The notes: generated by a model not told the origin, from the sequence alone. DNA of 64,000 nt from Methylotenera sp. (GCA_044228245.1 JBGAVG010000005.1:5557-69556), one strand, 5' to 3'. Positions 1-15,144 are shown, counted from the stretch's first letter. Made by a program: numbers and translations.

Positions 1-937
1 CTTTGCCACCTTTGTTCAATACATGCGTATAAATCATGGTAGTCGCCACATTTTCATGCCCCAGCAGCTCTTGCACGGTGCGGATATCATAACCACCCTG
101 CAGCAGATGCGTGGCAAAGCTGTGCCGTAAAGTATGCGGCGTGGCAGGTTTGGTAATGCCCGCGCGGCGGCATGCCGCCTTAATAGCGCGCTGTATCGTC
201 TCATCGGCCAGATGATGGCGCCGCACCTTACCGGAACGCGGGTCTGTTGAAAGCGTTGTAGAGGGGAACACATACTGCCAGCCCCACTCCTTGCCTGCGT
301 TCGGGTATTTTCGCTCTAAGGCATAAGGCAAAAACACCTCTCCCCCGCCGCTCGCCAAATCTTGTTCATGCAAATGTTTTACTTGCAGCAAATGTCCGCG
401 CAGCGGCTCTATCGCCATCTTTGGCAACATGGTCACACGGTCTTTAAAGCCTTTGCCCTCGCGCACCAGAATCTCGCCACGCTTCAGGTCAACATCCTTC
501 ACCCGCATGCGCAAAACTTCCATCAAACGCAAGCCGGAGCCATACAACAAACTAGCCGCCAGCCAATGCACGCCTTGCAACTGGCCTAACAATGCGCGCA
601 CTTCATCGTTATCCAGCACCGTTGGCAATCTGCGCGGCTTTTGCGCCTGCTCTACGTTATCCAGCCAAGGCAGCTCCTGCCCCAGCACATACTTATACAA
701 AAACAGCAAAGCACTACGCGCCTGGTTTTGCGTGCTGGCAGAAACATGGCCATCCACCGCCAGATGCGTTAAAAACGCCTCAACCTCCGGCGCGCCCAAT
801 TCGCCGGGGTGCCGCTTGCCGTGAAACAAAATGAAGCGCTTAACCCACTGCACATAGGCCTCTTCCGTTCTTATGCTATAGTGCTTTAAACGGATTTTGT
901 TGCGGACAGAATCTAAAAACGGGGATTGCGATGCCAT
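1..937 (-). CDS. intI: Integron integrase IntI (tyrosine recombinase); 3' end runs off the window
   Basis: Own translation from the ATG at 937: [44 protein letters not shown]... It contains the IntI-type extra segment [24 protein letters not shown] and the catalytic box [39 protein letters not shown]. It is missing from the ORF track because the ORF is open at position 1. Confidence 0.9.
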
Positions 938-943
938 ATGGTA

Positions 944-972
944 TTGACTATAGTTTAAAGGCTCCCTATTAT
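944..972 (+). promoter_or_regulatory. Candidate cassette promoter (Pc-like), TTGACT-N17-TATTAT
   Basis: -35 TTGACT at 944-949, a 17-nt spacer, and -10 TATTAT at 967-972. It points into the cassette array. Confidence 0.4.
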
Positions 973-996
973 TGACCTAATTTGATGATATGACAA
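968..996 (-). promoter_or_regulatory. Candidate intI promoter, TTGTCA-N17-AATAAT on the minus strand
   Basis: The reverse complement of 991-996 is TTGTCA, followed by a 17-nt spacer; the reverse complement of 968-973 is AATAAT. It lies face to face with the Pc candidate, about 30 nt upstream of the intI ATG. Confidence 0.3.
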
Positions 997-1053
997 GAAA
1001 AATGAAAAATAATACGCTCGTTTACACACCGTCATTGGGACGGTTACTTAATA

Positions 1054-1060
1054 GTTGGGC
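1054..1060 (+). other. attI recombination core GTTGGGC (crossover G|TT at 1054/1055)
   Basis: Fits GTTRRRY and lies 12 nt before the first cassette ATG. TTGGGC is the exact complement of the R'' box GCCCAAC (1969-1975) of the first attC. Confidence 0.7.
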
Positions 1061-1071
1061 GTCTCAAGCGC

Positions 1072-1953
1072 ATGAATAGCCAATCCTGCACGAGAAGAGA
1101 TTTTTTGATCGCCGTCGTCAGCGTTCTGGCGACAATACCTGTCGTGTCTGCCGCAAGCACTGAAGACGAGCCTGCTTCTATCGCCGATATTGAGGCGAAG
1201 GTTGGCGGGAGGGTCGGCGTTTTTGCCGTGGATACAGGAAGCGGCAAAGTATTGGCACACAGGCCGGATGAACGCTTCGCGATGTGCTCGACATTCAAGT
1301 GGGTGCTTGTAGCAACCATTCTTGCGCAGGTGGAGCGAAATATGGTGTCACTCGGCGACCGTGTTTTGTATGGGCCGGCTGATCTTCTGGCTTATGCCCC
1401 TGTCACAAGCAAGCATGTTGCGGAAGGCTTCATGACCGTGGGCGATTTGAGCCGTGCTGCGATTGTGGTCAGTGATAATACGGCTGCCAATCTGCTGCTC
1501 TCCAAATTGGGCGGCCCGTCGGCTGTTACCGAGTTCGCCCGGTCGTGCGGTGATGCTGTAACACGTCTCGACAGAAACGAGCCCACGCTCAATGACAATG
1601 AGGCAGACGATCTCCGCGACACAACCTCACCTCGGGCGATGGCTACGTTGATGAGGAAGGTTCTGTGCGGAAATCGCCTTTCATCTACATCCCGTGATCT
1701 TTTGCTGCAATGGCTGCGCGACTGTGAAACGGGCTATGATCGTTTGCGAGCGAAGCTGCCCAAGGATTGGCTGGTTGGCGACAAAACCGGCACGGGGGAG
1801 CGTGGCGCAGTTAACGATGTGGCAATCGCCATTCCTCCCGGTCGTTCTCCCATTCTTATTGCGGCGTTTCTAAGTGAGGGAAGAGTAGACCGCCCGGTTT
1901 TGGTCGCCGCGCACGCCGGTATCAGTCGTCTGATAGCACATCATTTCGCATGA
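1072..1953 (+). CDS. Class A (serine) beta-lactamase with twin-arginine signal peptide; cassette 1 (1055-2029)
   Basis: 293 aa. Motifs: S-x-x-K (MCSTFKW), SDN (VVSDNTAAN), the E166 loop (LDRNEPTLN) and KTG (GDKTGTG). The N-terminus MNSQSCTRRDFLIAVVSVLATIPVVSAAS matches the Tat consensus S/T-R-R-x-F-L. Confidence 0.85.
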   Translation: MNSQSCTRRDFLIAVVSVLATIPVVSAASTEDEPASIADIEAKVGGRVGVFAVDTGSGKVLAHRPDERFAMCSTFKWVLVATILAQVERNMVSLGDRVLYGPADLLAYAPVTSKHVAEGFMTVGDLSRAAIVVSDNTAANLLLSKLGGPSAVTEFARSCGDAVTRLDRNEPTLNDNEADDLRDTTSPRAMATLMRKVLCGNRLSSTSRDLLLQWLRDCETGYDRLRAKLPKDWLVGDKTGTGERGAVNDVAIAIPPGRSPILIAAFLSEGRVDRPVLVAAHAGISRLIAHHFA

Positions 1954-1968
1954 CCATTGCCCTGTTAC

Positions 1969-2035
1969 GCCCAACCCATCATTCCAGCGGACCTGCGCGA
2001 AAAGCCGCGCAGGCCGGTGAATTCAGACGTTAGGG
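1969..2035 (+). repeat. attC site 1 (67 bp)
   Basis: R'' GCCCAAC ... imperfect GC-rich palindrome CTGCGCG/CGCGCAG ... R' GTTAGGG. Confidence 0.8.
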
Positions 2036-2040
2036 TAATC

Positions 2041-2307
2041 ATGTCATCTACTCGCTTCGCCCTATTACTTCATCCAAATGCTCCTCAAGAATTTCTCTCA
2101 TTGGTTTCTTCTTGTCTCCGAATTCACAATGAGGAACGCTATCTGTACGGAAGCAAGGTGGAACACATCGGGGGATTTGTTGAGTTCCACATAATTGAGA
2201 AAGACCGTCCAGATTGGCCTGTTCAAATACCTGTGGGTTATATCGTAGCCATCGCAGATATGTCAAAACACCAAGCAGTTCCAGGCTTTCTGTCGGGTAG
2301 CAAATAA
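2041..2307 (+). CDS. Hypothetical 88-aa protein; cassette 2 (2030-2410)
   Basis: The ATG is 6 nt after the attC R' box, preceded by AGGG, and the ORF ends before the next attC. It has the same orientation as the other cassettes. No recognisable motif; an antisense ORF competes with it. Confidence 0.5.
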   Translation: MSSTRFALLLHPNAPQEFLSLVSSCLRIHNEERYLYGSKVEHIGGFVEFHIIEKDRPDWPVQIPVGYIVAIADMSKHQAVPGFLSGSK

Positions 2308-2359
2308 CCGGCATACCTGGCTTCCAAGTCATGGCATATCTAGTCCAATCATCCATATC

Positions 2360-2416
2360 CCCTAACCCCTCATTCAACCGCGACCACTTCGCGGCGCGTT
2401 AATTCTAACGTTAGCC
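2360..2416 (+). repeat. attC site 2 (57 bp)
   Basis: R'' CCCTAAC is the reverse complement of G+TTAGGG at the cassette 2 start; R' is GTTAGCC. Close relative of attC 4. Confidence 0.8.
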
Positions 2417-2427
2417 CTAAAATTAGC

Positions 2428-3099
2428 ATGTCATCAAATAACTTTAAATTATCACGAGTCTCGGGACAGCCAGTTAGTGATTCTGAGCTTCTCATGGATT
2501 TGAAACGCGTTAGCGAAATGCTGAACACATCAAAGGTATCTATGCCCAAGTACAATGAACTTGGCAATTACGATAACACTACGGTGGCAAGGCGCTTTGG
2601 CACTTGGAACAATGCACTAATCAAAGCAGGTTTGGCGGTCTCAAACGAAACCAACATTCCAGATGAACGCTTATTTGAAAACATTTTAACGTTATGGCAA
2701 CACTTTGGTCGCCAGCCCAGACGCAGCGAATTGGCAAAAGCGCCTTCGACTATTTCGCAGAGCCCTTACAACAGAAGATTTAGTTCATGGACAACGGCAT
2801 TAGAAGCTTTCATTGAGTATGCCAACGCTGGTGGAACTGATGTACCAACAGTAGTATCAAGTAACGAAAGCCAACCCAAAACAGGCAGAGACCCCTCTCT
2901 TAGGCTTCGTTGGCATGTGCTACAACGAGACCGCTTCACTTGCTGTGCTTGCGGTGCAAGCCCAGCAATCACACAAGGGGTTGAACTGCACGTTGACCAT
3001 ATAATTCCATGGAGTAAGGGCGGTGAAACAATATTAGCCAATCTTCAAACCCTTTGTTCCACATGTAATCTGGGTAAATCCAATGTATATTCAGGCTAA
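2428..3099 (+). CDS. HNH endonuclease with N-terminal homing-endonuclease-associated repeats; cassette 3 (2411-3147)
   Basis: C-terminal HNH motif [32 protein letters not shown] with paired Cys (CCACG...CSTCN). N-terminal repeated units ...[16 protein letters not shown] / ...[14 protein letters not shown]. The stop codon lies inside the attC R'' box. Confidence 0.8.
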
Positions 3100-3153
3100 C
3101 CCATCCATCAAGCGGGACGCGCTAAAGCGCGCCCCTTATGTCAAACGTTAGGG
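3094..3153 (+). repeat. attC site 3 (60 bp)
   Basis: R'' GGCTAAC is the reverse complement of G+TTAGCC at the cassette 3 start. Palindrome GGGACGCGC/GCGCGCCCC. R' GTTAGGG. Confidence 0.8.
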
Positions 3154-3161
3154 TTTTCATT

Positions 3162-3542
3162 ATGGGATTGCTCGATGGACTCGAAAAACTGATTAACGAG
3201 CACGGTTCGGCTACGATATTGAAGGAGCGCATTGCGCTTCTTAACGACCAGCATGCGCTTGTCGAAAAGCAAGCCGCTGCGCTTAAGGAGCAAATAACGC
3301 ACCTTCAAGGCGAGAATGAGCGTCTTAAGCTCGATAAACAGCAGCTGCAACAACAGATAAAAACACTGGAATCTTCTCATAACATAAACCCTCACAATTA
3401 CGTCTGCGACCACTGTGGCAGCGATAATCTAAATAGAGCTGGCAGCAGACCAGACCCAACATTCGGCGATTTAGGCATAAAGCAATCTTTATTTAACTGC
3501 TTATCATGCGGCAAGCAAAGTGCATTTACACAAAATCCCTAA
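3162..3542 (+). CDS. Coiled-coil protein with C-terminal CxxC...CxxC zinc ribbon; cassette 4 (3148-3593)
   Basis: 126 aa from the ATG at 3162, with AGGG upstream inside R'. Heptad-like stretch LKEQITHLQGENERLKLDKQQLQQQIKTLE, then CDHCGS...CLSCGK. Confidence 0.65.
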   Translation: MGLLDGLEKLINEHGSATILKERIALLNDQHALVEKQAAALKEQITHLQGENERLKLDKQQLQQQIKTLESSHNINPHNYVCDHCGSDNLNRAGSRPDPTFGDLGIKQSLFNCLSCGKQSAFTQNP

Positions 3543-3599
3543 CCTATCATTCAACCCCGACCGCGCCTACAGCGCGGCGGGTTAATTCAAACGTTAGGC
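3537..3599 (+). repeat. attC site 4 (63 bp)
   Basis: R'' CCCTAAC is the reverse complement of G+TTAGGG at the cassette 4 start. Palindrome AACCCCGACCGCGC/GCGCGGCGGGTT. R' GTTAGGC. Confidence 0.8.
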
Positions 3600-3622
3600 G
3601 TCTAAAAAAGAAAGAAATCAAC

Positions 3623-4018
3623 ATGAAGTTGCTTCCGATTCTTGCCGCTGGCTTTGCATATTTTGCGCTTGGGGGCCTTTGGTTTACGCCGTTATTTGGC
3701 AGGCAGTGGGACAAAGCCGTTGGCTTTGAACGCCCGCCAAAATGGCGGCCTAGCACCATTTACTACGTTGGCCCACTATTGGGTTGCCTGGTGGCGGCAT
3801 TTGCAACCGCTTACCTTGCACAGCTTGCTCAAGCGCAGTCGCTCGAGGACTATTTAAGAATTGGACTTCTGGCTGGCATCGGGTACGGTGCACCTATTAC
3901 TGCGGTAAATGCCATCGCCCCGAACATGCAGCATCCTGGACTTTATGCTGCCGTTGTAGGCTCCTACCACATGACAGGCCTGGTGCTTTGCGCCGCGGTT
4001 TTACATTGGCTCTCGTAG
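3623..4018 (+). CDS. DUF1761-like small membrane protein; cassette 5 (3594-4074)
   Basis: 131 aa from the ATG at 3623: MKLLPILAAGFAYFALGGLWFTPLFGRQWDKAVGF..., with several hydrophobic helices. The family assignment is from memory of DUF1761 N-termini. Confidence 0.65.
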   Translation: MKLLPILAAGFAYFALGGLWFTPLFGRQWDKAVGFERPPKWRPSTIYYVGPLLGCLVAAFATAYLAQLAQAQSLEDYLRIGLLAGIGYGAPITAVNAIAPNMQHPGLYAAVVGSYHMTGLVLCAAVLHWLS

Positions 4019-4038
4019 CAAAGCCTCAAGCAAGCCAC

Positions 4039-4080
4039 GCATAACTTGCTGCTCAAGCTGCAAAATGCCGCGCATTAGAG
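4039..4080 (+). repeat. Degenerate, shortened attC (42 bp) between the DUF1761 and brnTA cassettes
   Basis: R'' GCATAAC is one mismatch from the GCCTAAC predicted by the cassette 5 start TTAGGC. The R' position reads ATTAGAG instead of GTTAGAG. TTAGAG is the exact complement of the next attC R'' box CTCTAAC. Confidence 0.6.
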
Positions 4081-4094
4081 CACATCCTCAATAC

Positions 4095-4130
4095 TTGATT
4101 TTTGTATGAAAAAGGTATATTTTATATACC
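4095..4130 (+). promoter_or_regulatory. Candidate brnTA promoter plus palindromic operator
   Basis: TTGATT at 4095-4100, then an A/T-rich -10 region (TATATT/TATATA). The inverted repeat GGTATAT-TTT-ATATACC (4114-4130) abuts the brnT ATG, so there is almost no leader. Confidence 0.4.
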
Positions 4131-4394
4131 ATGATAGTATTTGAATTTGACGAAACAAAAAGTCAGGCGAATCTTCTTAAGCATGGTATCAATTTCATTG
4201 ATGCTCAGGATTTATGGAATGATCCAAGGTTATTGGAAATCCCCGCTAAAACCGAAGATGAGCCAAGATATCTGATGATAGGGCTGATTAACAAGAAACA
4301 CTGGTCAGCAGTTATCACCTATAGAGGCACAAATATTCGACTTATTTCTGTTCGTCGCTCACGCACCGAGGAGGTTGCATTATATGAAAGCTAA
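4131..4394 (+). CDS. brnT: BrnT-family (DUF497) toxin; cassette 6 (4075-4654)
   Basis: 87 aa: MIVFEFDETKSQANLLKHGINFIDAQDLWNDP...IRLISVRRSRTEEVALYE, matching the BrnT pattern (W/FD..K...N..KHG..F..A..F ... R.IS.R.A...E...Y). Confidence 0.8.
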   Translation: MIVFEFDETKSQANLLKHGINFIDAQDLWNDPRLLEIPAKTEDEPRYLMIGLINKKHWSAVITYRGTNIRLISVRRSRTEEVALYES

Positions 4395-4635
4395 AGATTT
4401 TGAACAGCAGTTTGACGAGAATGTTGACATTACAGCCTCGCTGGATTTGTCAAAGGCAAAACGCGTATTGCAAGAGCAAAAGCGCGTGAATGTCGATTTT
4501 CCAACATGGATGATCGAATCCCTGGATCGGGAGGCTGGAAAACTTGGGGTTACGAGGCAGTCCATTATTAAAGTGTGGCTTGCCGAGCGTTTGGAAAAAT
4601 CTACTCTAACGCCTCCATCAAGCGGCACGCGCTAA
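4384..4635 (+). CDS. brnA: BrnA/CopG-like antitoxin
   Basis: The ATG at 4384 lies 9 nt after GAGGAGG and overlaps the brnT 3' end. It carries the ribbon-helix-helix-type segment KRVNVDFPTWMIESLDREAGKLGVTRQSIIKVWL. The last codons read into the attC. Confidence 0.75.
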   Translation: MKAKDFEQQFDENVDITASLDLSKAKRVLQEQKRVNVDFPTWMIESLDREAGKLGVTRQSIIKVWLAERLEKSTLTPPSSGTR

Positions 4636-4660
4636 ACGCGCCCCTTAATCAGACGTTTTT
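4604..4660 (+). repeat. attC site 6, last in the array
   Basis: R'' CTCTAAC is the reverse complement of G+TTAGAG at the cassette 6 start. Core CCATCAAGCGGCACGCGCTAAACGCGCCCCTTAATCAGAC is near-identical to attC 3. R' reads GTTTTTT, with no RRRY, as expected at the array end. Confidence 0.75.
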
Positions 4661-4674
4661 TCTTCAAATCCATC

Positions 4675-4720
4675 GCCCTGCAGCCCGCATGGATATTGCC
4701 TTGCAGGGCATCTAATTTTT
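4675..4720 (+). terminator. Hairpin plus T-run after the last cassette; member of the CCAATATCCATG hairpin family
   Basis: Stem GCCCTGCA (4675-4682) pairs with TGCAGGGC (4702-4709) around a 19-nt loop, followed by 6 nt and TTTTT (4716-4720). Same architecture, and about 80% identity, as 53821-53866. Confidence 0.45.
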
Positions 4721-4844
4721 CTTGGCTTTTGTGTCTTTTTGGGCTTGCGCCCTCTCGCAATTAAGCCTATGCTGGATTTATGCCAGTTATGAACGATGGT
4801 GTTCAGTTCGCCGCCATGTTTGTATATTCTCGCAAGGAGCTAAC

Positions 4845-5081
4845 ATGAAAATTGAAATCAGTGAAGATATCAAAGCATTAGCGACCCTTTGCAAGCATGA
4901 TCTTGCCTGCCTGAAATCAGAAAATCATCCGTTATGTAAAGTACAGGATTGCGTCGACGGCAAAGTGCATTTTATTGAGTGCAAAGACCATAATCCTTGC
5001 GTGTATAAAACATCGTTTGGATACGGGCATGTTTGCGGCTGCCCGGTAAGAAAGGAAATCTACAACAAATATAAAATATAA
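4845..5081 (+). CDS. Small cysteine-rich hypothetical protein (78 aa, 9 Cys)
   Basis: The ATG at 4845 is preceded by AGGAG: MKIEISEDIKALATLCKHDLACLKSENHPLCKVQDCVDGKVHFIECKDHNPCVYKTSFGYGHVCGCPVRKEIYNKYKI. AT-rich, and I recognise no family. Confidence 0.5.
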   Translation: MKIEISEDIKALATLCKHDLACLKSENHPLCKVQDCVDGKVHFIECKDHNPCVYKTSFGYGHVCGCPVRKEIYNKYKI

Positions 5082-5132
5082 CGCCCGCAAGCGTTGCTTC
5101 GCCCACTCTGTCGAGCTTCATAGAACAGCAAC

Positions 5133-5678
5133 ATGACGCGCATTCACAGCTTTGAGCCCATTGCGGATGAAAACGCAGAGATACTGATTCTTGGCAGCAT
5201 GCCGGGACGCGCATCGCTGGCCGCCGGACAATATTATGCGCATGGCCAGAATACTTTCTGGCGCATCATTTGCCATCTGCTTCAGCTTGATATTGCATCT
5301 ACCTATGAGGCAAGAACTCAGGCGCTAAAGTCAGCCAGAATTGCGCTTTGGGATGTGCTGCACTCATGCAGGCGGGAAGGCAGCCTGGATGCGATGATTG
5401 AGCGCGATACGCAGATAGCCAACGATTTTAAGACATTCTTCCAAACGCACAATAAAATCACGCATGTATTTTTTAACGGCGCCAAGGCCGAGGAATATTT
5501 CTTGCGCCATGTGCTGAAAAATATCAACAATAACCCCATCAGTTTTACGCGTTTGCCTTCAACAAGCCCGGCACATGCCGCGATGTCGTTTGAGCAAAAA
5601 CTCAGCGCCTGGAGGGCTATTGAGGCCATCGTGCAAAACTTTGATCATGGCCCGCTAAGTTTGGCAGTTAGCGCGTAG
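5133..5678 (+). CDS. DNA-deoxyinosine (hypoxanthine) glycosylase, UDG superfamily
   Basis: 181 aa with LILGSMPGRASLAAGQYYAHGQNTFWRI and a C-terminal LPSTSPAHA, typical of family-6 UDG/HDG-like enzymes (from memory). Confidence 0.65.
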   Translation: MTRIHSFEPIADENAEILILGSMPGRASLAAGQYYAHGQNTFWRIICHLLQLDIASTYEARTQALKSARIALWDVLHSCRREGSLDAMIERDTQIANDFKTFFQTHNKITHVFFNGAKAEEYFLRHVLKNINNNPISFTRLPSTSPAHAAMSFEQKLSAWRAIEAIVQNFDHGPLSLAVSA

Positions 5679-5771
5679 AGAATAAACAGCTGATGAAAAG
5701 AGCCGTACAAACGCTGCAAATAATTCAACCTTCCAGTTCTATTTTCACCGGTTTAGTTTTAAACTAGCCGC

Positions 5772-6425
5772 ATGAAAACTCCTTTTATTTTATCTTCCGC
5801 CCTGGCCATATACGCCGCAATTGTTGCGCATGAGGCCGATATTGAATCGCTAGACCGCGCGATTGGCGATGGCGACCATTACATCAACATGAAACGCGGC
5901 AGCGAGATGATTGCGGGCATGTATAACGAACTGCTGCCGCTGCCGCCGGAAGACGCGCTGCAAAAAATCAGCATGAAGCTGCTCAGCACTATCGGCGGGG
6001 CTTCGGGGCCATTGTTTGCGAGCTTTTTTATGGGCATGTCCAAATACCTGAAAGAGCACCACGCCAAAATCAACGAAACCAATATGCACCTAGAAACTGC
6101 AGCCGCTTTTGCCTATGGGGTGCAGAGCATGATGATGCGCGGCAAATCCAACGTGGGTGAAAAAACCATGCTGGATGTGCTGGTGCCTGTTTCTACCACA
6201 TTCACCACGATGGCAGCACAAGGCAAACCGGTTGCCGAGATATGCGCCGCTGTAAAAAGCGCTGCCGATAAAGGGCTGGAATACACGCGCAACCTGCTTG
6301 CCACCAAGGGCCGCGCTGCGGGCTTGGGTGAACGTGCGATTGGCCATTTAGACCCCGGCGCGAAAAGCTGCCAGGTGATGACGCATACGGTCTGTGATTT
6401 GGTTTTGAAAGAGATTAAACAATGA
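5772..6425 (+). CDS. dhaL: Dihydroxyacetone kinase subunit L (ADP-binding)
   Basis: 217 aa with the DRAIGDGDHYINMKRG motif (D-x-x-x-G-D-G-D-H-G type). It overlaps dhaK by 4 nt. Confidence 0.8.
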   Translation: MKTPFILSSALAIYAAIVAHEADIESLDRAIGDGDHYINMKRGSEMIAGMYNELLPLPPEDALQKISMKLLSTIGGASGPLFASFFMGMSKYLKEHHAKINETNMHLETAAAFAYGVQSMMMRGKSNVGEKTMLDVLVPVSTTFTTMAAQGKPVAEICAAVKSAADKGLEYTRNLLATKGRAAGLGERAIGHLDPGAKSCQVMTHTVCDLVLKEIKQ

Positions 6426-7423
6426 AAAAATTTATCAATTCGACTGACGCTTTGTTAAAAGAAAGCCTCACCGGCTTTGGTCAAGCGCATGCCGATTTAG
6501 TCCAGGTACATTTCGAACCCGCCTACGTTACCCGCGCCAAACCGGCGCAAAATAAAGTCGCCATTGTTTCCGGCGGCGGCTCAGGGCACGAGCCGTTACA
6601 TGCGGGCTACATCGGCTATGGCATGCTCGATGCCGCCTGCCCCGGCCAGGTGTTTACCTCGCCCACGCCAGACCAGATGCTGGCTGCTGCCGAAGCGGTG
6701 CATGCAGGAAAGGGCATTTTGTTTATTGTGAAGAACTATGCCGGCGATGTGATGAATTTTGAAATGGCCGCGGAAATGCTGCCATTTGACCATGCCACCG
6801 TGCTCACCAGCGACGACTGCGCCGTGGTCAACAGCACCTACACCACCGGCCGCCGCGGCGTTGCAGGCACAGTGATTGTCGAAAAATGCGTTGGCAGTCT
6901 GGCAGAAACCGGCGCCAGCTTGCACGCCTGCCAGTTACTTGGCAACAAAGTGAATGCCCGCACCGCCAGCATTGGCGTGGCTTTAACCAGCTGCACCGTA
7001 CCTGCTGCAGGCCGCCCAACCTTTGACATCAGCGACAGCGAACTGGAAATGGGCGTAGGCATTCATGGCGAGCCGGGACGCAGGCGCGAAGCCATGCGCG
7101 AGGCAGATTCGATCGTGGGTGACTGCGTTGCCGCCATTCTGGCAGATCTGAAAACAACCCTGGAAAACGATACTTCAAGGGATATCCTGCTGCTCGTCAA
7201 CGGCCTCGGTGCGACCCCGCTCATGGAGCTCTACCTCATCTACAACACCGCGGCGAAGCTGCTGGGCGATGCAGGGTTGAATATATCGCGTAGCCTGGTC
7301 GGCAACTACACCACGGCCATCGACATGGCAGGCGCTTCCATCACGGTTTGCCTGCTGGATGATGAAATCAAGCAGCATTGGGATAGCCCCGTGCATACGC
7401 CGGCGCTACGCTGGGGGTGTTAA
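6422..7423 (+). CDS. dhaK: Dihydroxyacetone kinase subunit K
   Basis: 333 aa with VSGGGSGHEPLHAGYIGYGMLDAACPGQVFTSPTPDQM, the DhaK signature. Confidence 0.85.
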   Translation: MKKFINSTDALLKESLTGFGQAHADLVQVHFEPAYVTRAKPAQNKVAIVSGGGSGHEPLHAGYIGYGMLDAACPGQVFTSPTPDQMLAAAEAVHAGKGILFIVKNYAGDVMNFEMAAEMLPFDHATVLTSDDCAVVNSTYTTGRRGVAGTVIVEKCVGSLAETGASLHACQLLGNKVNARTASIGVALTSCTVPAAGRPTFDISDSELEMGVGIHGEPGRRREAMREADSIVGDCVAAILADLKTTLENDTSRDILLLVNGLGATPLMELYLIYNTAAKLLGDAGLNISRSLVGNYTTAIDMAGASITVCLLDDEIKQHWDSPVHTPALRWGC

Positions 7424-7636
7424 GGGCACTTCTATAAATTCACTTTTTGGGCGCATTACTTTGTTGCGCGGTTTTTTGGTTTCGGCCGCTACGCTTAACA
7501 TTGGCTTCGCCAATGTTAGCCTGCACCGCAACTGGCGTTGTCGCAACCTCGCTGTATAGCCCATACTATCTCGGCTCCTGCGTTCCGTGCGCCTCGTACT
7601 ACATCCCAAACCCTGTATTTATAGAAGTGCCCTTAA
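7420..7636. mobile_element. MITE-like element (217 bp) with perfect 20-bp terminal inverted repeats
   Basis: TTAAGGGCACTTCTATAAAT at 7420-7439, with its exact reverse complement at 7617-7636. Internal hairpin GCTTAACATTGGC-TTC-GCCAATGTTAGC (7493-7520). The internal 65 nt are homologous to 62420-62490 (inverted). Confidence 0.75.
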
Positions 7637-10390
7637 ATCTTTACTAAAAACAGTCTTCCAAAGCGCCAATACAGCTGCCTGCTGTTTTTCAAGTTCAGCC
7701 GATTTTACCTTTGCCGCTTGCGCCTGCAGTTTTGTGGCGTGAATCAGTTTGCGGTATTGCCTGTAGGCGTCCGCTACTTCTTTCGCCAGGTTTTTATTAA
7801 TAATATTCAATTCGCCCAGCACTTTTAATAAGCCAATATTACCAATGTTTTCAGTGAGTTGCGGATATTGTCTTGCGTGCGCCAGCACCAGATACTGCAC
7901 CAGAAACTCCACATCAATAATGCCGCCCGCGCTGTGTTTTACATCAAACCAGTCTTTTTCAAAACGCTGTGCCGCACGCATTTTCTCGCGCATGGCCATG
8001 ACGTCGGCTTTCAATTTCTCTATATCGCGCGTTTGCGTCATCACTTCAAAACGAATGGCATCGAAAGCCTTGCCAATACTGACATCCCCTGCCACAAAGC
8101 GGGCACGAGTAATGGCCTGATGCTCCCAAACCCAGGCCTTATGGAGTTGATAATCGCGAAATGCTTCTATGCTGCTTACCAGCAAGCCGCTATTGCCATC
8201 CGGACGCAGCTGCAAATCGGTTTCATACAGCAGCCCCGCATTGGTCACGCTGTTAAACCAGCTGTTGATGCGCTGCGCAAAGCGCGCATAGTTTTCTGAA
8301 GCATCAGGATGATCATCGTCCTTAGCATTTTCATGCGCGGCATCATAAAGAAAAATTATATCCAGATCAGACAGATAACCCAGCTCCTTGCCGCCCAGCT
8401 TGCCGTAGCCAATGACCGCGAACCTGGGCGTTTCGCAATGCCTGAACTTGAGCGATTGCCAGATCGTTTGCAGACTCACTTGCAGAATGAGGTCGGCCAG
8501 CGCGCTCAAATAGTCCGACAACGTTTCCAGAGTTAGCCTGCCCGCCACATCTTGCGCCGCGAGGCGCAAGATTGCAGCCTGCTTGAAATGGCGCATGGCG
8601 TCCATTTGCGCTTCGGTATCCCCTTGCAATTGCTGCATGCTCTCGTTGAGTTCTTCCTGCATTCTGGCGAAATCAGGCGGTGCATATAAGTTTCGCGTAT
8701 CCAGCAGTTCATCCAGCAAAATGGGATGCGCCGCCAAATACTGCGCCAGCCAGGGGCTGGCCGCGCATAGCTTAATCACCAGATGCAGCGCCTCCGGATA
8801 CTCGGCCAGCAGGGCCAGATAACTCGCACGGCGGCAGATATTCTCCAGCAGATTGATCGTGCGCAACAGTGCGATATCTGCATTTTTCTCCTGCCCGGAT
8901 TGCTTAATCACCAGTGGCATCAGGCAATCAAAGCGTTGGCGGCTTAATTCTGGCAGCTGTTGATAACGGCTGCTGGCCCTGAGCATTTGCAGCTGCTGCA
9001 GAACTTGCGACGCATTGCCAAATCCCACATTTGTCAAGGCTTGCAGGGCAGCATCATTCTCTAGCGCGCCTTGCCATACGGCCGTTTCCTGCGCGGTTTG
9101 TTGCTGGCTCTGTTCGCTATCGCTGTCATCGTTAAACGTTGCGTCAAAATGCTGCTGTACCAGGCCACGGTGGCAGTTGAGCGCCATGAGAAACTCTGTC
9201 CAGCTGGCGTAGTTCATGGCGTGGGCGATGCGCACTTTTGCCTCGTCGGTTTTAGGCAAATCCTGCGTTTGCCGATCTTCCACATACATCAGGCGATGTT
9301 CCAGATTGCGCAAAAACACGTAGGCTTCAGTCAGTTCCACAACCGTTTTTTCGGACAACAGCTTTTTGTTTTGCAACAGATTCAACACCGCTAATGTAGG
9401 CCGAATTTGCAAGCTTATATCGCGCCCGCCGCGAATCAGCTGGAACACTTGGGCGATAAATTCTATCTCGCGGATTCCGCCCCGCCCTAGCTTGATATTA
9501 TCCTGCAGCCCTTTTTGTGTCACATCGCGATGAATTTGCAGTTTCAGGTCGCGCATGCTCGCAAGCGCATTGTAATCGAGATACTTTCTAAAAACGAACG
9601 GCCTGAGAAGCGCATGGATATTGGCCTGCGGCCCGGCAACCACACGGCCTTTAATCCATGCGTAACGCTCCCATTCGCGGCCGTTATTCTGGTAATACTC
9701 TTCCAGCGCGTCCAGATTCGAAACCAGCGCGCCCTCGCTGCCAAACGGCCGCAACCGCATATCCACACGAAACACAAAGCCGTCTTCGGTAATTTCATCC
9801 AGCGCCGCAATAAGTTTTTTGCTGAGGCGCGCAAAAAAATCCTGATTGCTGATGGGACGTTCGCCCTGTGTCGCGCCTTCATTCTCATAGGCAAAAATCA
9901 AGTCAATGTCGGACGACACATTGAGCTCACCGCCGCCCAACTTGCCCATGCCGATCACAATCAGGCCTTGCGGATGCCCCTGCGCGTCCACCGGCTGGCC
10001 ATAGGTCTCCACCTGCCAGGCATTCAGGTAATCGATTGCCGTGCTAATCGTGCATTCCGCGAGCTGGGAAGTCGTATTCATCACCTCCTGCAAATCAGCC
10101 AAGCCATTTAAGTCGCGACAGATCGTGCGCACCAATACACGCTGCCTGAGCTTTCTTAATGCCTTTTTTAAGGTATTTTCATCACTTATTTGTTGGTTTG
10201 CCAGAAATTGTTGCATTTCTGCCAACCCACACGAAACCTCCAGATTGTCTAGCAGATCTTCGAGCAGGCCGGCATCGTTAGCAAGCAATCTGCGTGCAAA
10301 TGGGCTGCAAACTTCCAGCCTGTGCAGACAAGAAGTCTGCAATGGTGTTAATGCACGGTTTTTGGCGATTTCAGACAGTGTTTGCATCAT
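7619..10390 (-). CDS. glnE: Bifunctional glutamine synthetase adenylyltransferase/adenylyl-removing enzyme
   Basis: 923 aa with two nucleotidyltransferase halves (GMGKLGGGELNVSSDIDLIF and GYGKLGGKELGYLSDLDIIF). Confidence 0.9.
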   Translation of the reverse strand: MMQTLSEIAKNRALTPLQTSCLHRLEVCSPFARRLLANDAGLLEDLLDNLEVSCGLAEMQQFLANQQISDENTLKKALRKLRQRVLVRTICRDLNGLADLQEVMNTTSQLAECTISTAIDYLNAWQVETYGQPVDAQGHPQGLIVIGMGKLGGGELNVSSDIDLIFAYENEGATQGERPISNQDFFARLSKKLIAALDEITEDGFVFRVDMRLRPFGSEGALVSNLDALEEYYQNNGREWERYAWIKGRVVAGPQANIHALLRPFVFRKYLDYNALASMRDLKLQIHRDVTQKGLQDNIKLGRGGIREIEFIAQVFQLIRGGRDISLQIRPTLAVLNLLQNKKLLSEKTVVELTEAYVFLRNLEHRLMYVEDRQTQDLPKTDEAKVRIAHAMNYASWTEFLMALNCHRGLVQQHFDATFNDDSDSEQSQQQTAQETAVWQGALENDAALQALTNVGFGNASQVLQQLQMLRASSRYQQLPELSRQRFDCLMPLVIKQSGQEKNADIALLRTINLLENICRRASYLALLAEYPEALHLVIKLCAASPWLAQYLAAHPILLDELLDTRNLYAPPDFARMQEELNESMQQLQGDTEAQMDAMRHFKQAAILRLAAQDVAGRLTLETLSDYLSALADLILQVSLQTIWQSLKFRHCETPRFAVIGYGKLGGKELGYLSDLDIIFLYDAAHENAKDDDHPDASENYARFAQRINSWFNSVTNAGLLYETDLQLRPDGNSGLLVSSIEAFRDYQLHKAWVWEHQAITRARFVAGDVSIGKAFDAIRFEVMTQTRDIEKLKADVMAMREKMRAAQRFEKDWFDVKHSAGGIIDVEFLVQYLVLAHARQYPQLTENIGNIGLLKVLGELNIINKNLAKEVADAYRQYRKLIHATKLQAQAAKVKSAELEKQQAAVLALWKTVFSKDLRALL

Positions 10391-10476
10391 TTTTTTAAGG
10401 TAATATGGCGTTTGGCAATTTAGTTACATCTTACATTATTCATCAATATTAATAGCGTTTTGGGGAGTGCAGCAGC

Positions 10477-12453
10477 ATGTCAATTGAATCGGTTCTTCAT
10501 GAAAATCGCATTTTTGAACCCAGCGATGCGTTTAAACAACAAGCCACCGTATCTGGCATGGCGGCCTATAACGCTTTGTGCGCAGAAGCCGCTGCCGATT
10601 ATGAAGGATTTTGGGCGAAACTGGCGCGCGAGTTATTGATTTGGCACAAACCCTTTACAAAAACCCTTAACGACAGCAACGCGCCTTTTTACAAATGGTT
10701 TGAAGATGGCGAACTGAATGTTTCAGCCAACTGCCTCGACAGGCACTTGAACACCATCCCCAATAAAACCGCGATTATTTTTGAGGCTGACAATGGCGAC
10801 AGCAAAAAAGTAAGTTATAAAGAGCTATATCACCAAGTCTGCCAGTTCGCGAATGGCCTGAAAAAACTGAATCTCAATCTCGGCGACCGCGTCATCATCT
10901 ATCTTCCGATGGGCATCGAGGCTGTCGTAGCCATGCAAGCCTGCGCGCGTATCGGGCTTACCCACAGCGTGGTATTCGGCGGCTTTTCAGCCAAAAGTCT
11001 GAATGAACGCATTATTGATGCAGGCGCAAAAGCTGTGATTACTTCAGATGGCCAATTCCGCGGCGGCAAAACCTTGCCACTCAAACAAGCGGTGGATGAA
11101 GGCATTGCCATGGGCGGTTGCGACAGCATTCAACAAGTCGTGGTGCTGAAAAAAACCGGCCAGGAAGTTACCTGGAATGGACACAACATCTGGTGGCATG
11201 ACCTGATTGGCGGCTGCGCAGACACCTGCGAGCCTGTGATGGTGAATGCAGAACATCCCTTATTTTTGCTTTATACGTCAGGCTCCACAGGCAAGCCCAA
11301 GGGCGTGCAGCATTCATCCGCGGGCTACCTGCTGCATGCCATGAACACCATGCGCTGGACATTCGACATTCACGCCAATGATGTTTTCTGGTGCACCGCC
11401 GATGTGGGCTGGATTACCGGCCACACTTACGTGGCTTATGGGCCATTGGCGATGGGCGCGACGCAAGTAGTGTTTGAAGGCATTCCCACCTACCCTCACG
11501 CCGGGCGCTTCTGGCAGACGATTGAAAAGCATCAAGTATCGATTTTCTATACCGCACCCACGGCCATTCGCTCGCTCATTAAAGCTTCCGAAACCACGCC
11601 GGAAGTGCATCCTAAAAATTACAATCTAAGCAGCCTGCGTTTATTGGGCTCGGTGGGCGAACCCATCAACCCGGAAGCGTGGATGTGGTACTTTGAGAAC
11701 GTAGGCGGAAGCCGCTGCCCGATCGCTGATACTTTCTGGCAAACCGAAACCGGCGGCCATGTGATCACCCCGCTGCCGGGCGCTACCGCGCTGGTGCCCG
11801 GCTCATGCACGCTGCCTTTCCCAGGCATTGATATTGATGTGGTGGACGAAACAGGCAAGGACGTGCCCTGGGGCACCGGTGGTTTGCTTGTCATTAAAAA
11901 ACCGTGGCCAGCCATGATACGCACCATCTGGAATGATCCTGGGCGCTTTGTGAAAAGCTATTATCCGGCTGATTTAGGCGGCAAGATATATCTGGCGGGC
12001 GATGGCGCCGTACGCGATGCGGAAACCGGCAACTTCACCATTATGGGACGTATTGATGATGTGCTGAATGTGTCAGGCCACCGTTTGGGCACGATGGAAA
12101 TTGAATCTGCACTTGTAGCGAACCACTTGGTGGCAGAAGCTGCTGTCGTCGGTAAACCGCATGATATTAAAGGCGAATCTGTCGTGGCTTATGTGGTGCT
12201 AAAAGGTGCCCGACCACAAGGCGAAGAAGCCAAAAAAATCGTCGCCGAACTGCGGAACTGGGTCGGCAAAGAAATTGGCCCGATCGCCAAGCCGGACGAA
12301 ATCCGCTTTGGCGACAACTTGCCCAAAACCCGCTCCGGCAAGATTATGCGCAGGCTGTTACGCAGCCTGGCCAAAGGCGAAGAAATCACTTCGGACATTT
12401 CCACACTGGACAACCCCGCCATACTTGAACAACTAAAAGAAGTAGTGAAATAG
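10477..12453 (+). CDS. acs: Acetyl-CoA synthetase
   Basis: 658 aa with the AMP-binding motif [12 protein letters not shown] and C-terminal [12 protein letters not shown]. Confidence 0.95.
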
Positions 12454-12575: not shown

Positions 12576-13037
12576 TCAAGCTGCCGCAAATTCTTGCGTC
12601 ATTGGCCTAATAATGATCCGCAGACAGTGTCTGCCGAAGTTTTCTACTTCGTTAAAAAATAGCGCGCAAACAAAGTGTACACCGCCAAATCCAATCATCT
12701 CGAAACCGTAACCAATACGCGAAAGAAATCGCAAATTAGGGTTAATCTTTTCGCCCAGCATCAATGCATTCTCTGCGAGCTGGGGCAAGAATGTGGAGAT
12801 ATGTTGCCAGGTCAGCTTGCTTGGTGCGCAGCCTAGCAACTCTCCCGCCGCCTGGTTGCATTCGCAAATCGTGCCATTGTCGTAAAGGGTTATTACCGCT
12901 GTAATCTCTTCGCTGTGGCAAATACAGGCACTAGCGGCATTTTTAGCATGGTCACTGGCAACGTGATCATTAGCAGCGTCATCACTGGTTGTTACCTCAT
13001 TGGGGCCTACCCGGTATTCAATTAGCGCGGTGTTCAT
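12576..13037 (-). CDS. Stand-alone PAS-like domain protein
   Basis: 153 aa. The segment ITLYDNGTICECNQAAGELLGCAPSKLTWQHISTFLP resembles a PAS core. No output domain. The start overlaps the upstream stop (ATGA). Confidence 0.55.
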   Translation of the reverse strand: MNTALIEYRVGPNEVTTSDDAANDHVASDHAKNAASACICHSEEITAVITLYDNGTICECNQAAGELLGCAPSKLTWQHISTFLPQLAENALMLGEKINPNLRFLSRIGYGFEMIGFGGVHFVCALFFNEVENFGRHCLRIIIRPMTQEFAAA

Positions 13038-15092: not shown

Positions 15093-15098
<6 letters not shown>

Positions 15099-15144
15099 CT
15101 CAACCATAATTTACCAAATGAAAACAAGTTTTCAAACGTTAGGT
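15093..15144 (+). repeat. Orphan attC-like site (52 bp) overlapping the prfC stop codon
   Basis: GCCTAAC-TCAACC...GTTTTCAAAC-GTTAGGT. The right end shares 13 identical nt (TTCAAACGTTAGG) with attC 4, and the left end shares CTAAC..TCAACC. The central GC palindrome is missing. Confidence 0.4.

Follow-up and report, generated by a model that had tools for sequence, protein, structure and literature searches.

A chromosomal integron of Methylotenera that shares a beta-lactamase cassette with class 1 integrons

In integrons, the tyrosine recombinase IntI recombines the double-stranded attI site, at G|TT, with the folded bottom strands of attC sites; circular cassettes enter at attI and are excised by attC x attC recombination. 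The superintegron of Vibrio cholerae holds about 180 cassettes, and chromosomal integrons are thought to be the reservoir for the resistance cassettes of mobile integrons. Here we analyse an integron at the left end of a 64,000-nucleotide stretch of DNA from Methylotenera sp., a freshwater-type bacterium that uses methanol (GCA_044228245.1 JBGAVG010000005.1:5557-69556), referred to below as the window. We consider it very likely that this is a sedentary chromosomal integron (Methylotenera-like, Methylophilaceae) with recent turnover of its cassettes, the first of which, carrying a beta-lactamase gene (bla), is a probable recent immigrant.

The locus has much in common with the V. cholerae superintegron. 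Its IntI aligns end to end with VchIntIA (PDB 2A3V), gap-free across the IntI-specific segment (amino acids, aa, 206-226); intI and attI are divergent; the attC sites are co-oriented and carry bulged bases on the bottom strand; one cassette encodes a toxin-antitoxin pair; and a variable cassette content occupies a fixed chromosomal position. Unlike the superintegron, the window array has six units and at least three attC sequence types rather than one species-specific repeat, and its attC bottom strands, judged from GC skew, apparently lie on the lagging-strand template, in contrast to large chromosomal integrons (PMC13108822).

Compared with class 1 integrons (IntI1/attI1), the architecture is the same, and one cassette, boundaries included, has the same nucleotide sequence in both (100% identity). 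Class 1 membership is defined by IntI1 (~98% or more identical) together with attI1, and the window integron falls outside it: its integrase is 59.6% identical to IntI1 (that of a plasmid-like contig, L096), its attI is unrelated to the attI1 sequence of four contigs (L001, L009, L010 and L096), and the locus has housekeeping flanks with no Tn402 or 3'-conserved-segment context. The closest precedents are those of Ghaly et al. 2021 (PMC8352920), who examined 108 cassettes and found three to be the same in chromosomal and mobile settings, namely catB3 and qacI from Lysobacter oculi and qnrVC1 from Vibrio alginolyticus. There too, open reading frame (ORF) and attC are 100% identical in chromosomal and mobile integrons. 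In those cases, however, the attC type matched the host taxon, supporting an origin there, whereas the attC of the bla cassette (attC1) mismatches the attC types of its host, and this bla has yet to be named or tested as a resistance gene.

A fixed locus with a variable array

An IntI 100% identical to that of the window occurs at one locus in at least ten contigs (NCBI, ENA, JGI and Logan; L102-L111; up to 578 kb). The gene order is ppk2 and a two-component system, then intI and the array, followed by a 78-aa ORF, a UDG-family glycosylase gene, dhaL, dhaK and glnE. Within this frame the prevalent array encodes, in order, a 76-aa protein, a 136-150-aa protein, Imm50, a 126-aa coiled-coil protein, DUF1761, BrnT and BrnA. 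The window shares the last four genes of this series, while bla, an 88-aa ORF and an HNH gene replace the first three. The same pattern is seen in contig L018, which is 96% identical to window 3096-11771 and has ~1.2 kb of other cassettes standing for cassettes 1-3. In a relative, L012 (IntI 96% identical), the array is found at the same right-hand junction, and homology with the window resumes at position 4666, which fixes the right end of the array.

The reading made from the sequence alone had placed the array next to dhaLK and glnE and had taken it for a sedentary chromosomal integron rather than a clinical mobile one. Both statements are borne out, since the same flank adjoins the array in the relatives' contigs and the ppk2/dhaLK-glnE position is fixed. 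A search of the surroundings for a transposon or plasmid context found ppk2 on the left side and no transposase, plasmid or Tn402/tni genes called within ~8 kb of the locus in the comparator contigs. Across strains, the distal cassettes are common and the three attI-proximal cassettes differ under an identical IntI. These differences indicate, as far as sequence comparison can tell, recent capture and loss at attI. Because the locus is fixed, the flanks are housekeeping genes, transposition genes are lacking, variation is confined to the attI-proximal end and IntI is unchanged, the data are best accounted for by a recently active sedentary integron.

Plus-strand GC skew is negative in 14 of the 16 4-kb bins of the window, which would place the attC bottom strands on the lagging-strand template. 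That orientation has been reported to favour excision, and it is opposite to the one seen in large chromosomal integrons (PMC13108822); it would fit a small, fast-turning array. With six cassette units in 3.6 kb, the array is below the more than ~20 cassettes of the size definition, and under size-based definitions the locus is a small chromosomal integron. The platform itself is ordinary, integrons being already annotated in the family; the noteworthy part is the beta-lactamase cassette that links it to mobile integrons.

The beta-lactamase cassette and its other contexts

The 293-aa product of cassette 1 is predicted to be a class A beta-lactamase. It scores 305 bits against NF033103 (bla_class_A; cut-off 200), and its translation contains the class A motifs MCSTFKW, VSDNT, RNEPTLN (E166) and DKTGTG. 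The STFK, SDN, E166 and KTG motifs are also those of the class A L2, PEN and GES groups; unlike their members, the enzyme lies far under the cut-off of every named family. Assignment to any of these was rejected, the best being L2 with 265 bits against a cut-off of 540, and identity to the GES enzyme of a Klebsiella pneumoniae contig (L001, GCA_032424395.1) is 45%. The closest solved structures are reconstructed ancestral enzymes. An N-terminal TRRDFL Tat-type motif suggests that the protein is probably Tat-exported, with a signal that resembles those of L2 and PenA enzymes. Such a product would be expected to hydrolyse beta-lactams.

The same protein has already been deposited, as MDT9670796.1 / WP_315865499.1, 'class A beta-lactamase [Klebsiella pneumoniae]'. 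At the nucleotide level, window 1054-2034 is 100% identical over 981 bp to positions 1801-2781 of the K. pneumoniae contig, where the class 1 array reads attI1, blaGES, acetyltransferase, cassette 1 bla, aac(6')-Ib-type, aadA and qac/smr-type; this blaGES is a carbapenemase gene of the GES-5-like type, with Ser170 read from the sequence. Cassette 1 is also found in first position at attI1 in two ENA metagenome contigs (L009 and L010) and first behind a canonical 337-aa IntI1 in L096, a 16-kb plasmid-like contig that has MobA/MobL, a coupling protein, ParA and a resolvase aboard. In four other integron contexts the unit starts ...G|TTGGGCGTC and ends ...CAGACG|TTAGG, and the identical ends prove the boundaries of the cassette directly. 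Searches of PLSDB plasmids and complete E. coli genomes found no copy of cassette 1 (best PLSDB protein at most 49% identity), and no paper was found that mentions this bla, its accessions or an integron in Methylotenera. The 100% nucleotide identity of cassette 1 connects the array with the clinical cassette pool. It likewise shows that both platforms drew this cassette very recently, whichever way the last transfer ran. As a separate observation, positions 1-4933 of the K. pneumoniae contig include two gene-less stretches between the first acetyltransferase gene and bla.

The cassette of the Methylotenera array has probably immigrated recently, from a cassette pool that mobile integrons also use, and would then not be native to Methylophilaceae. 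Its attC differs from the host-type attCs: attC1 shares 61-72% identity with the remaining attCs of the window, compared with 87% and 84% with the attCs of bla homologues in two unrelated integrons (L091 and L093). These homologues belong to a bla-plus-attC family that has diverged to 77-94% protein identity and is spread over other platforms and taxa, with homologues in L091, L114, a Desulfobacter contig (L093) and L095, the last with a truncated attC beside an insertion sequence.

The main alternative is that the integron of Methylotenera or of close relatives was the source of the class 1 bla cassette, which would be native there and would have passed from chromosomal to mobile platform. 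The 981-bp identity fits such a transfer, the Methylotenera context of bla is present in at least seven independent assemblies, a right half like that of attC1 occurs in the related array L012, and the catB3, qacI and qnrVC1 cassettes described above are precedents (PMC8352920). However, the cassette is in first position in the window and missing from the prevalent array variant of the species, its attC resembles those of bla homologues elsewhere rather than host-type attCs, and the diversity of the family across other platforms and taxa speaks against a native source. Since attC1 is not of the host types, capture is at least as likely as origin, and we regard the native-donor account as unlikely. 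A related proposal can be held somewhat more readily, although only tentatively: that exchange with clinical class 1 integrons was direct and very recent, with Methylotenera as the proximate donor or reservoir of a new, unnamed bla family found in K. pneumoniae beside blaGES.

Several of the homologous loci have features of their own. In L114 (746-2987), the first cassette carries a bla homologue of 86% identity and stands next to an IntI that shares only 66% identity with IntI1. L091 carries a 91% homologue in a toxin-antitoxin-rich array headed by a 64-aa C-terminal intI fragment (5089-5280), a decayed integron. On the Desulfobacter sp. contig (L093), which has no intI, a bla cassette of 83% identity lies between the rpsF-rplI operon and leuS and is flanked by a 52-nt double-hairpin repeat (3703-3760 and 4741-4800) joined at the R' end of attC.

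Integrase, recombination sites and cassettes

The window contains all but the end of intI, whose product is predicted to be an integron integrase. It scores 467.9 bits against TIGR02249 (integron integrase; cut-off 265; profile positions 1-305 of 315), and all six catalytic residues (R137, K165, H268, R271, H294 and Y303) are present and lie inside the window. The IntI-specific insertion and intact RHRY-type box seen in the original reading thus stand, given these residues and the VchIntIA alignment. Truncation or a frameshift just past the left edge had been named as what would make this a decaying integron. A metagenome contig (L004), which overlaps the window by 2017 bp at 100% identity and reaches 226 bp further left, shows the entire 322-aa ORF, its stop codon 30 bp past the window edge and followed by the PPK2 gene; intI is therefore intact. 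NCBI annotates the identical protein as integron integrase, Methylotenera sp., and the closest relatives among species-representative genomes (91-96% identity) are from Methylophilus, Methylotenera and other Methylophilaceae metagenome-assembled genomes (MAGs).

As had been proposed, intI (minus strand) faces away from an attI core, GTTGGGC, located at 1054-1060. The sequence ...TTACTTAATAGTT is common to L018, L102, L012, L011 and L020. More widely, attI is identical up to ...AATAGTT in L018 and L102 and conserved in the other three, and array variants and relatives diverge exactly after GTT, which fixes the crossover position. Beside this site, the palindrome ACCGTC-ATTGG-GACGGT (1028-1044) shows compensatory change in L012, L011 and L020, where it reads GCCATC...GATGGC or GCCGTC...GACGGC; a hairpin or a dimer-binding site may thus be under selection upstream of the crossover. 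A separate element was noticed in L011, a Methylophilus MAG (reverse complement 11084-11190 and 11715-11823): a structured repeat of ~107 nt occurs exactly after the attI GTT and again after an attC GTT, the copies bracketing one cassette. One possibility is a small element with integron recombination sites as its target.

To locate the attC sites we used a covariance model, R1, made from 20 attC bottom strands of other genomes, with none from the window, and having 18 base pairs that span the R and L boxes. Its training sequences come from Methylophilaceae as well as from other taxa (arrays L015 and L041 of Methylophilus; L012, L017, L038 and L048; the aacA4-type attC of a class 1 integron), and the search covered all 64 kb on both strands with filters off. 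R1 generalises, since it also recovers two attCs of the K. pneumoniae contig that were absent from training, that of blaGES, which is long, and the qac-type one at the end of the array. An earlier heuristic finder (AAC...GTT with constrained folding) was set aside: it found sites 1, 3, 4 and 6, missed site 2 and gave a false positive at 2920-2986 in the HNH gene. Applied strictly to distant loci for a wholly foreign training set, the heuristic yielded only three loci with at least two sites. An Rfam scan of 1-12000 (E up to 10) gave no matches, which is uninformative as Rfam has no attC family.

R1 matched five of the six sites that the sequence-only reading had put forward, and failed on site 5 (Table 1). 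The matches are 0.4-1.1 kb apart and all on the minus strand, as attC bottom strands should be if the cassettes are read in the plus direction, and the R1 alignments place bulged T...G...G bases on the bottom strand of each of the five sites. When 51 distinct attCs (the window and 11 loci) were aligned, 91.3% of cells formed standard pairs, against 31-50% when the pairing partners were slid; compensatory changes were found in 12 of the 18 pairs, and the L-box helix was 95.3% paired. Mismatches are frequent in the outermost R-box pairs (27 of 51 attCs at the outermost position), which is to be expected, since the R' of an arrayed site is chimeric and includes sequence of the following cassette.

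Table 1. Coordinates and evidence for the features of the integron and its right flank
Feature	Position	Strand	Details
intI, integron integrase	937..<1	minus	312 of 322 codons inside the window; last 10 codons and stop past the left edge
Divergent promoter-like sites, intI-attI spacer	944..996	both	consensus scan, each 10/12 positions
Candidate Pc, TTGACT-17-TATTAT	944-972	+	consensus scan
Candidate Pint, TTGTCA-17-AATAAT	996-968	minus	consensus scan
attI	1018..1060	+	palindrome 1028-1044, then TACTTAATA, then crossover G|TT at 1054|1055
Cassette 1, class A beta-lactamase (predicted)	1055..2029	+	ORF 1072-1953, 293 aa; attC1 1969-2035, R1 46.8 bits
Cassette 2, 88-aa ORF of unknown function	2030..2410	+	ORF 2041-2307; attC2 2360-2416, R1 50.3 bits
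Cassette 3, HNH endonuclease, two homing-endonuclease-associated repeats	2411..3147	+	ORF 2428-3099; attC3 3094-3153, R1 71.7 bits
Cassette 4, 126-aa coiled-coil protein, Cys-rich C-terminal end	3148..3593	+	ORF 3162-3542; attC4 3537-3599, R1 50.3 bits
Cassette 5, DUF1761 membrane protein	3594..4074	+	ORF 3623-4018, PF08570; decayed attC 4039-4080
Cassette 6, brnT (4131-4394) and brnA (4384-4635)	4075..4655	+	attC6 4604-4661 (R1 match 4608-4657, 22.6 bits, E ~1e-3); array end
Conserved chromosomal flank	4662..10390		96% nucleotide identity to L018, 70-78% to L012
78-aa Cys-rich ORF	4845-5081		within right flank
DNA-deoxyinosine glycosylase (UDG family)	5133-5678		TIGR04274 match; UDG Pfam match in syntenic gene of L102-L104
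dhaL	5772-6425		syntenic genes in L102-L104 with Dak2 Pfam match
dhaK	6422-7423		syntenic genes in L102-L104 with Dak1 Pfam match
glnE	7619-10390	minus	syntenic genes in L102-L104 with GlnE Pfam match

The attCs had been sorted into two closely related types. The two pairings hold, with 78% identity each between sites 2 and 4 and between sites 3 and 6 (other window pairs 61-72%), but the array as a whole has at least three sequence types, attC1 being distinct. As to homogeneity within the lineage, the sites point both ways: attC2 reaches 86% identity with an attC of L011, a Methylophilus MAG, and attC3 is 95-100% identical to attCs of Methylophilus sp. 14 (L041) and L015, so that these two match Methylophilus at 86-95% or better; within the array, however, identity is 61-78% and attC1 is of another type.

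Elsewhere in the window, the next-best R1 match (20.9 bits, E 0.003) is a lone attC-like site on the minus strand at 15093-15144, GCCTAAC-N38-TCAAACGTTAGGT, directly after the prfC stop. It is followed by a low-GC (~33%) membrane ORF that extends to 15540, with no second attC visible. A cassette that had entered outside the integron may have left this site behind. An exact look-up of the prfC product near 15.1 kb returned nothing on record.

The boundaries of the cassettes are internally consistent. The six pairs listed originally, each matching the first six bases of a cassette with its own R'' box, are all correct, including the single mismatch. Own-cassette pairs add up to 1 mismatch in total compared with 10 for in-array neighbour pairs, and among the 720 permutations just 2 do so well, namely the true order itself and the one that exchanges the two identical TTAGGG starts. 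As for their contents, the ORF of cassette 2 (88 aa) has no match in Pfam or NCBIfam, the cassette 3 protein matches PF18780 and PF01844, and that of cassette 4, a cassette common to all other array variants of the species, gives weak coiled-coil matches only. Cassette 6 is a predicted BrnT/BrnA type II toxin-antitoxin pair (PF04365, 87 bits, cut-off 34.5; NF047399, 119 bits, cut-off 60), whose genes overlap by 11 nt.

Site 5 departs from this scheme. It is 42 nt long, its R' reads ATTAGAG and not GTT, it forms no hairpin on folding and R1 does not match it, and a working attC was rejected on these grounds. A chance match was rejected as well. In a Gammaproteobacteria MAG (L099), a DUF1761 cassette, with a protein in the same 90%-identity cluster as that of the window, starts TTATGC and ends CAAGCCAC-GCATAAC, followed by a canonical 63-nt attC (60 bits). 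The window and L099 have CAAGCCACGCATAAC in common; both arms are lost in the window, where R'' GCATAAC is kept and R' has changed G->A. Since the homologous cassette has an intact attC at this point, the R'' of site 5 is genuine, and we read site 5 as a decayed attC and cassettes 5 and 6 as once separate and now fused. The earlier description of a complete integron with six cassettes therefore stands for intI, attI and six cassette-derived units, with only five attCs intact. With the attC between DUF1761 and brnTA decayed, both units would be movable only together and brnTA would not be excisable alone.

Miniature R''-R' sites that have lost the entire hairpin were also noted in other arrays. 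One, of 20 nt, is at the end of the L012 array (reverse complement ~12677-12697, CTCTAAC-TCGAAC-GTTAACA), and a second, GCCTAACAATTCGTTAGGC, is in the K. pneumoniae class 1 array (L001 1630-1648). They suggest recurrent internal deletion of attCs.

Mechanistically, IntI would insert circular cassettes at G|TT 1054|1055 beside attI and excise them by attC x attC recombination. Cassettes would be read from a promoter in the intI-attI spacer, for which TTGACT-17-TATTAT (944-972) is the candidate, and intI would be transcribed from the candidate TTGTCA-17-AATAAT. Cassette replacement at attI, an intact integrase, five foldable attCs with covariation and exact G|TT boundaries are what the sequences show. 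The distal array (cassettes 4-6) is fixed in the species, and the non-excisable brnTA unit may stabilise it.

A fossil array, with a non-functional intI or non-functional attCs and with strain differences owed to homologous recombination or deletion instead of IntI, would account for the decayed site 5, the atypical R' of the terminal attC, the 20-nt stub that ends the L012 array and the lack of an SOS box near intI. It is nevertheless distinctly improbable, given that IntI, at 322 aa, is intact, keeps every catalytic residue and shows 100% conservation from sample to sample, that variable cassettes start exactly at the attI G|TT, and that four attCs score 47-72 bits.

Remaining alternatives and implications

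Two further explanations can practically be dismissed. The first, that the intI-bla junction is an assembly or binning chimera formed through the GTTRRRY repeats at cassette boundaries, would draw on the probable origin of the window from a metagenome-assembled genome and on the known trouble of short-read assemblers with integron repeats; but seven contigs (L002-L008), each from a different sequencing run, contain the intI-attI-bla junction at 99.8-100% identity, two of them (L002 and L003) extend past cassettes 2-3, the repeat common to the junction is only ~7 nt, and a junction seen in seven independent assemblies is not chimeric. The second, a mobile integron on a transposon, plasmid or genomic island that by chance lies in the window contig, is hardly credible either: although the array carries a cassette also present on class 1 integrons and a plasmid-like contig, housekeeping genes lie on both sides, the junctions are conserved in the relative with a 96% identical IntI, and neither the genes called around the locus (no transposase or tni genes within ~8 kb) nor the 59.6% identity to IntI1 agree with it.

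A recently active sedentary integron with an immigrant bla cassette thus remains the favoured reading, and a number of points count against it. The claim of a foreign attC1 is weakened by a 38-nt right half of this site (97%) on a different cassette of the related array L012, and the GC content of cassette 1 (56%, host genome 51%), tried as a mark of foreignness, is not discriminating. R1 is purpose-built, not the model of IntegronFinder, and its E-values are rough; attC6 reaches only 22.6 bits and has R' = GTTTTTT. The number of promoter-like sites in the intI-attI region is not above shuffle expectation, which makes the candidates positional only, and a LexA box (CTGT-N8-ACAG) was sought near intI with none found. 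Lastly, the window was assembled from a metagenome, as were most of the sequences compared with it.

Cassettes known to be identical in chromosomal and mobile platforms are very few, and cassette 1 adds one whose bla belongs to no named family. As a candidate for an emerging resistance gene, this bla lends itself to phenotypic testing and to surveillance. For Methylotenera, two array variants under one identical IntI offer a natural system in which to follow the flow of cassettes between environmental and clinical integrons.

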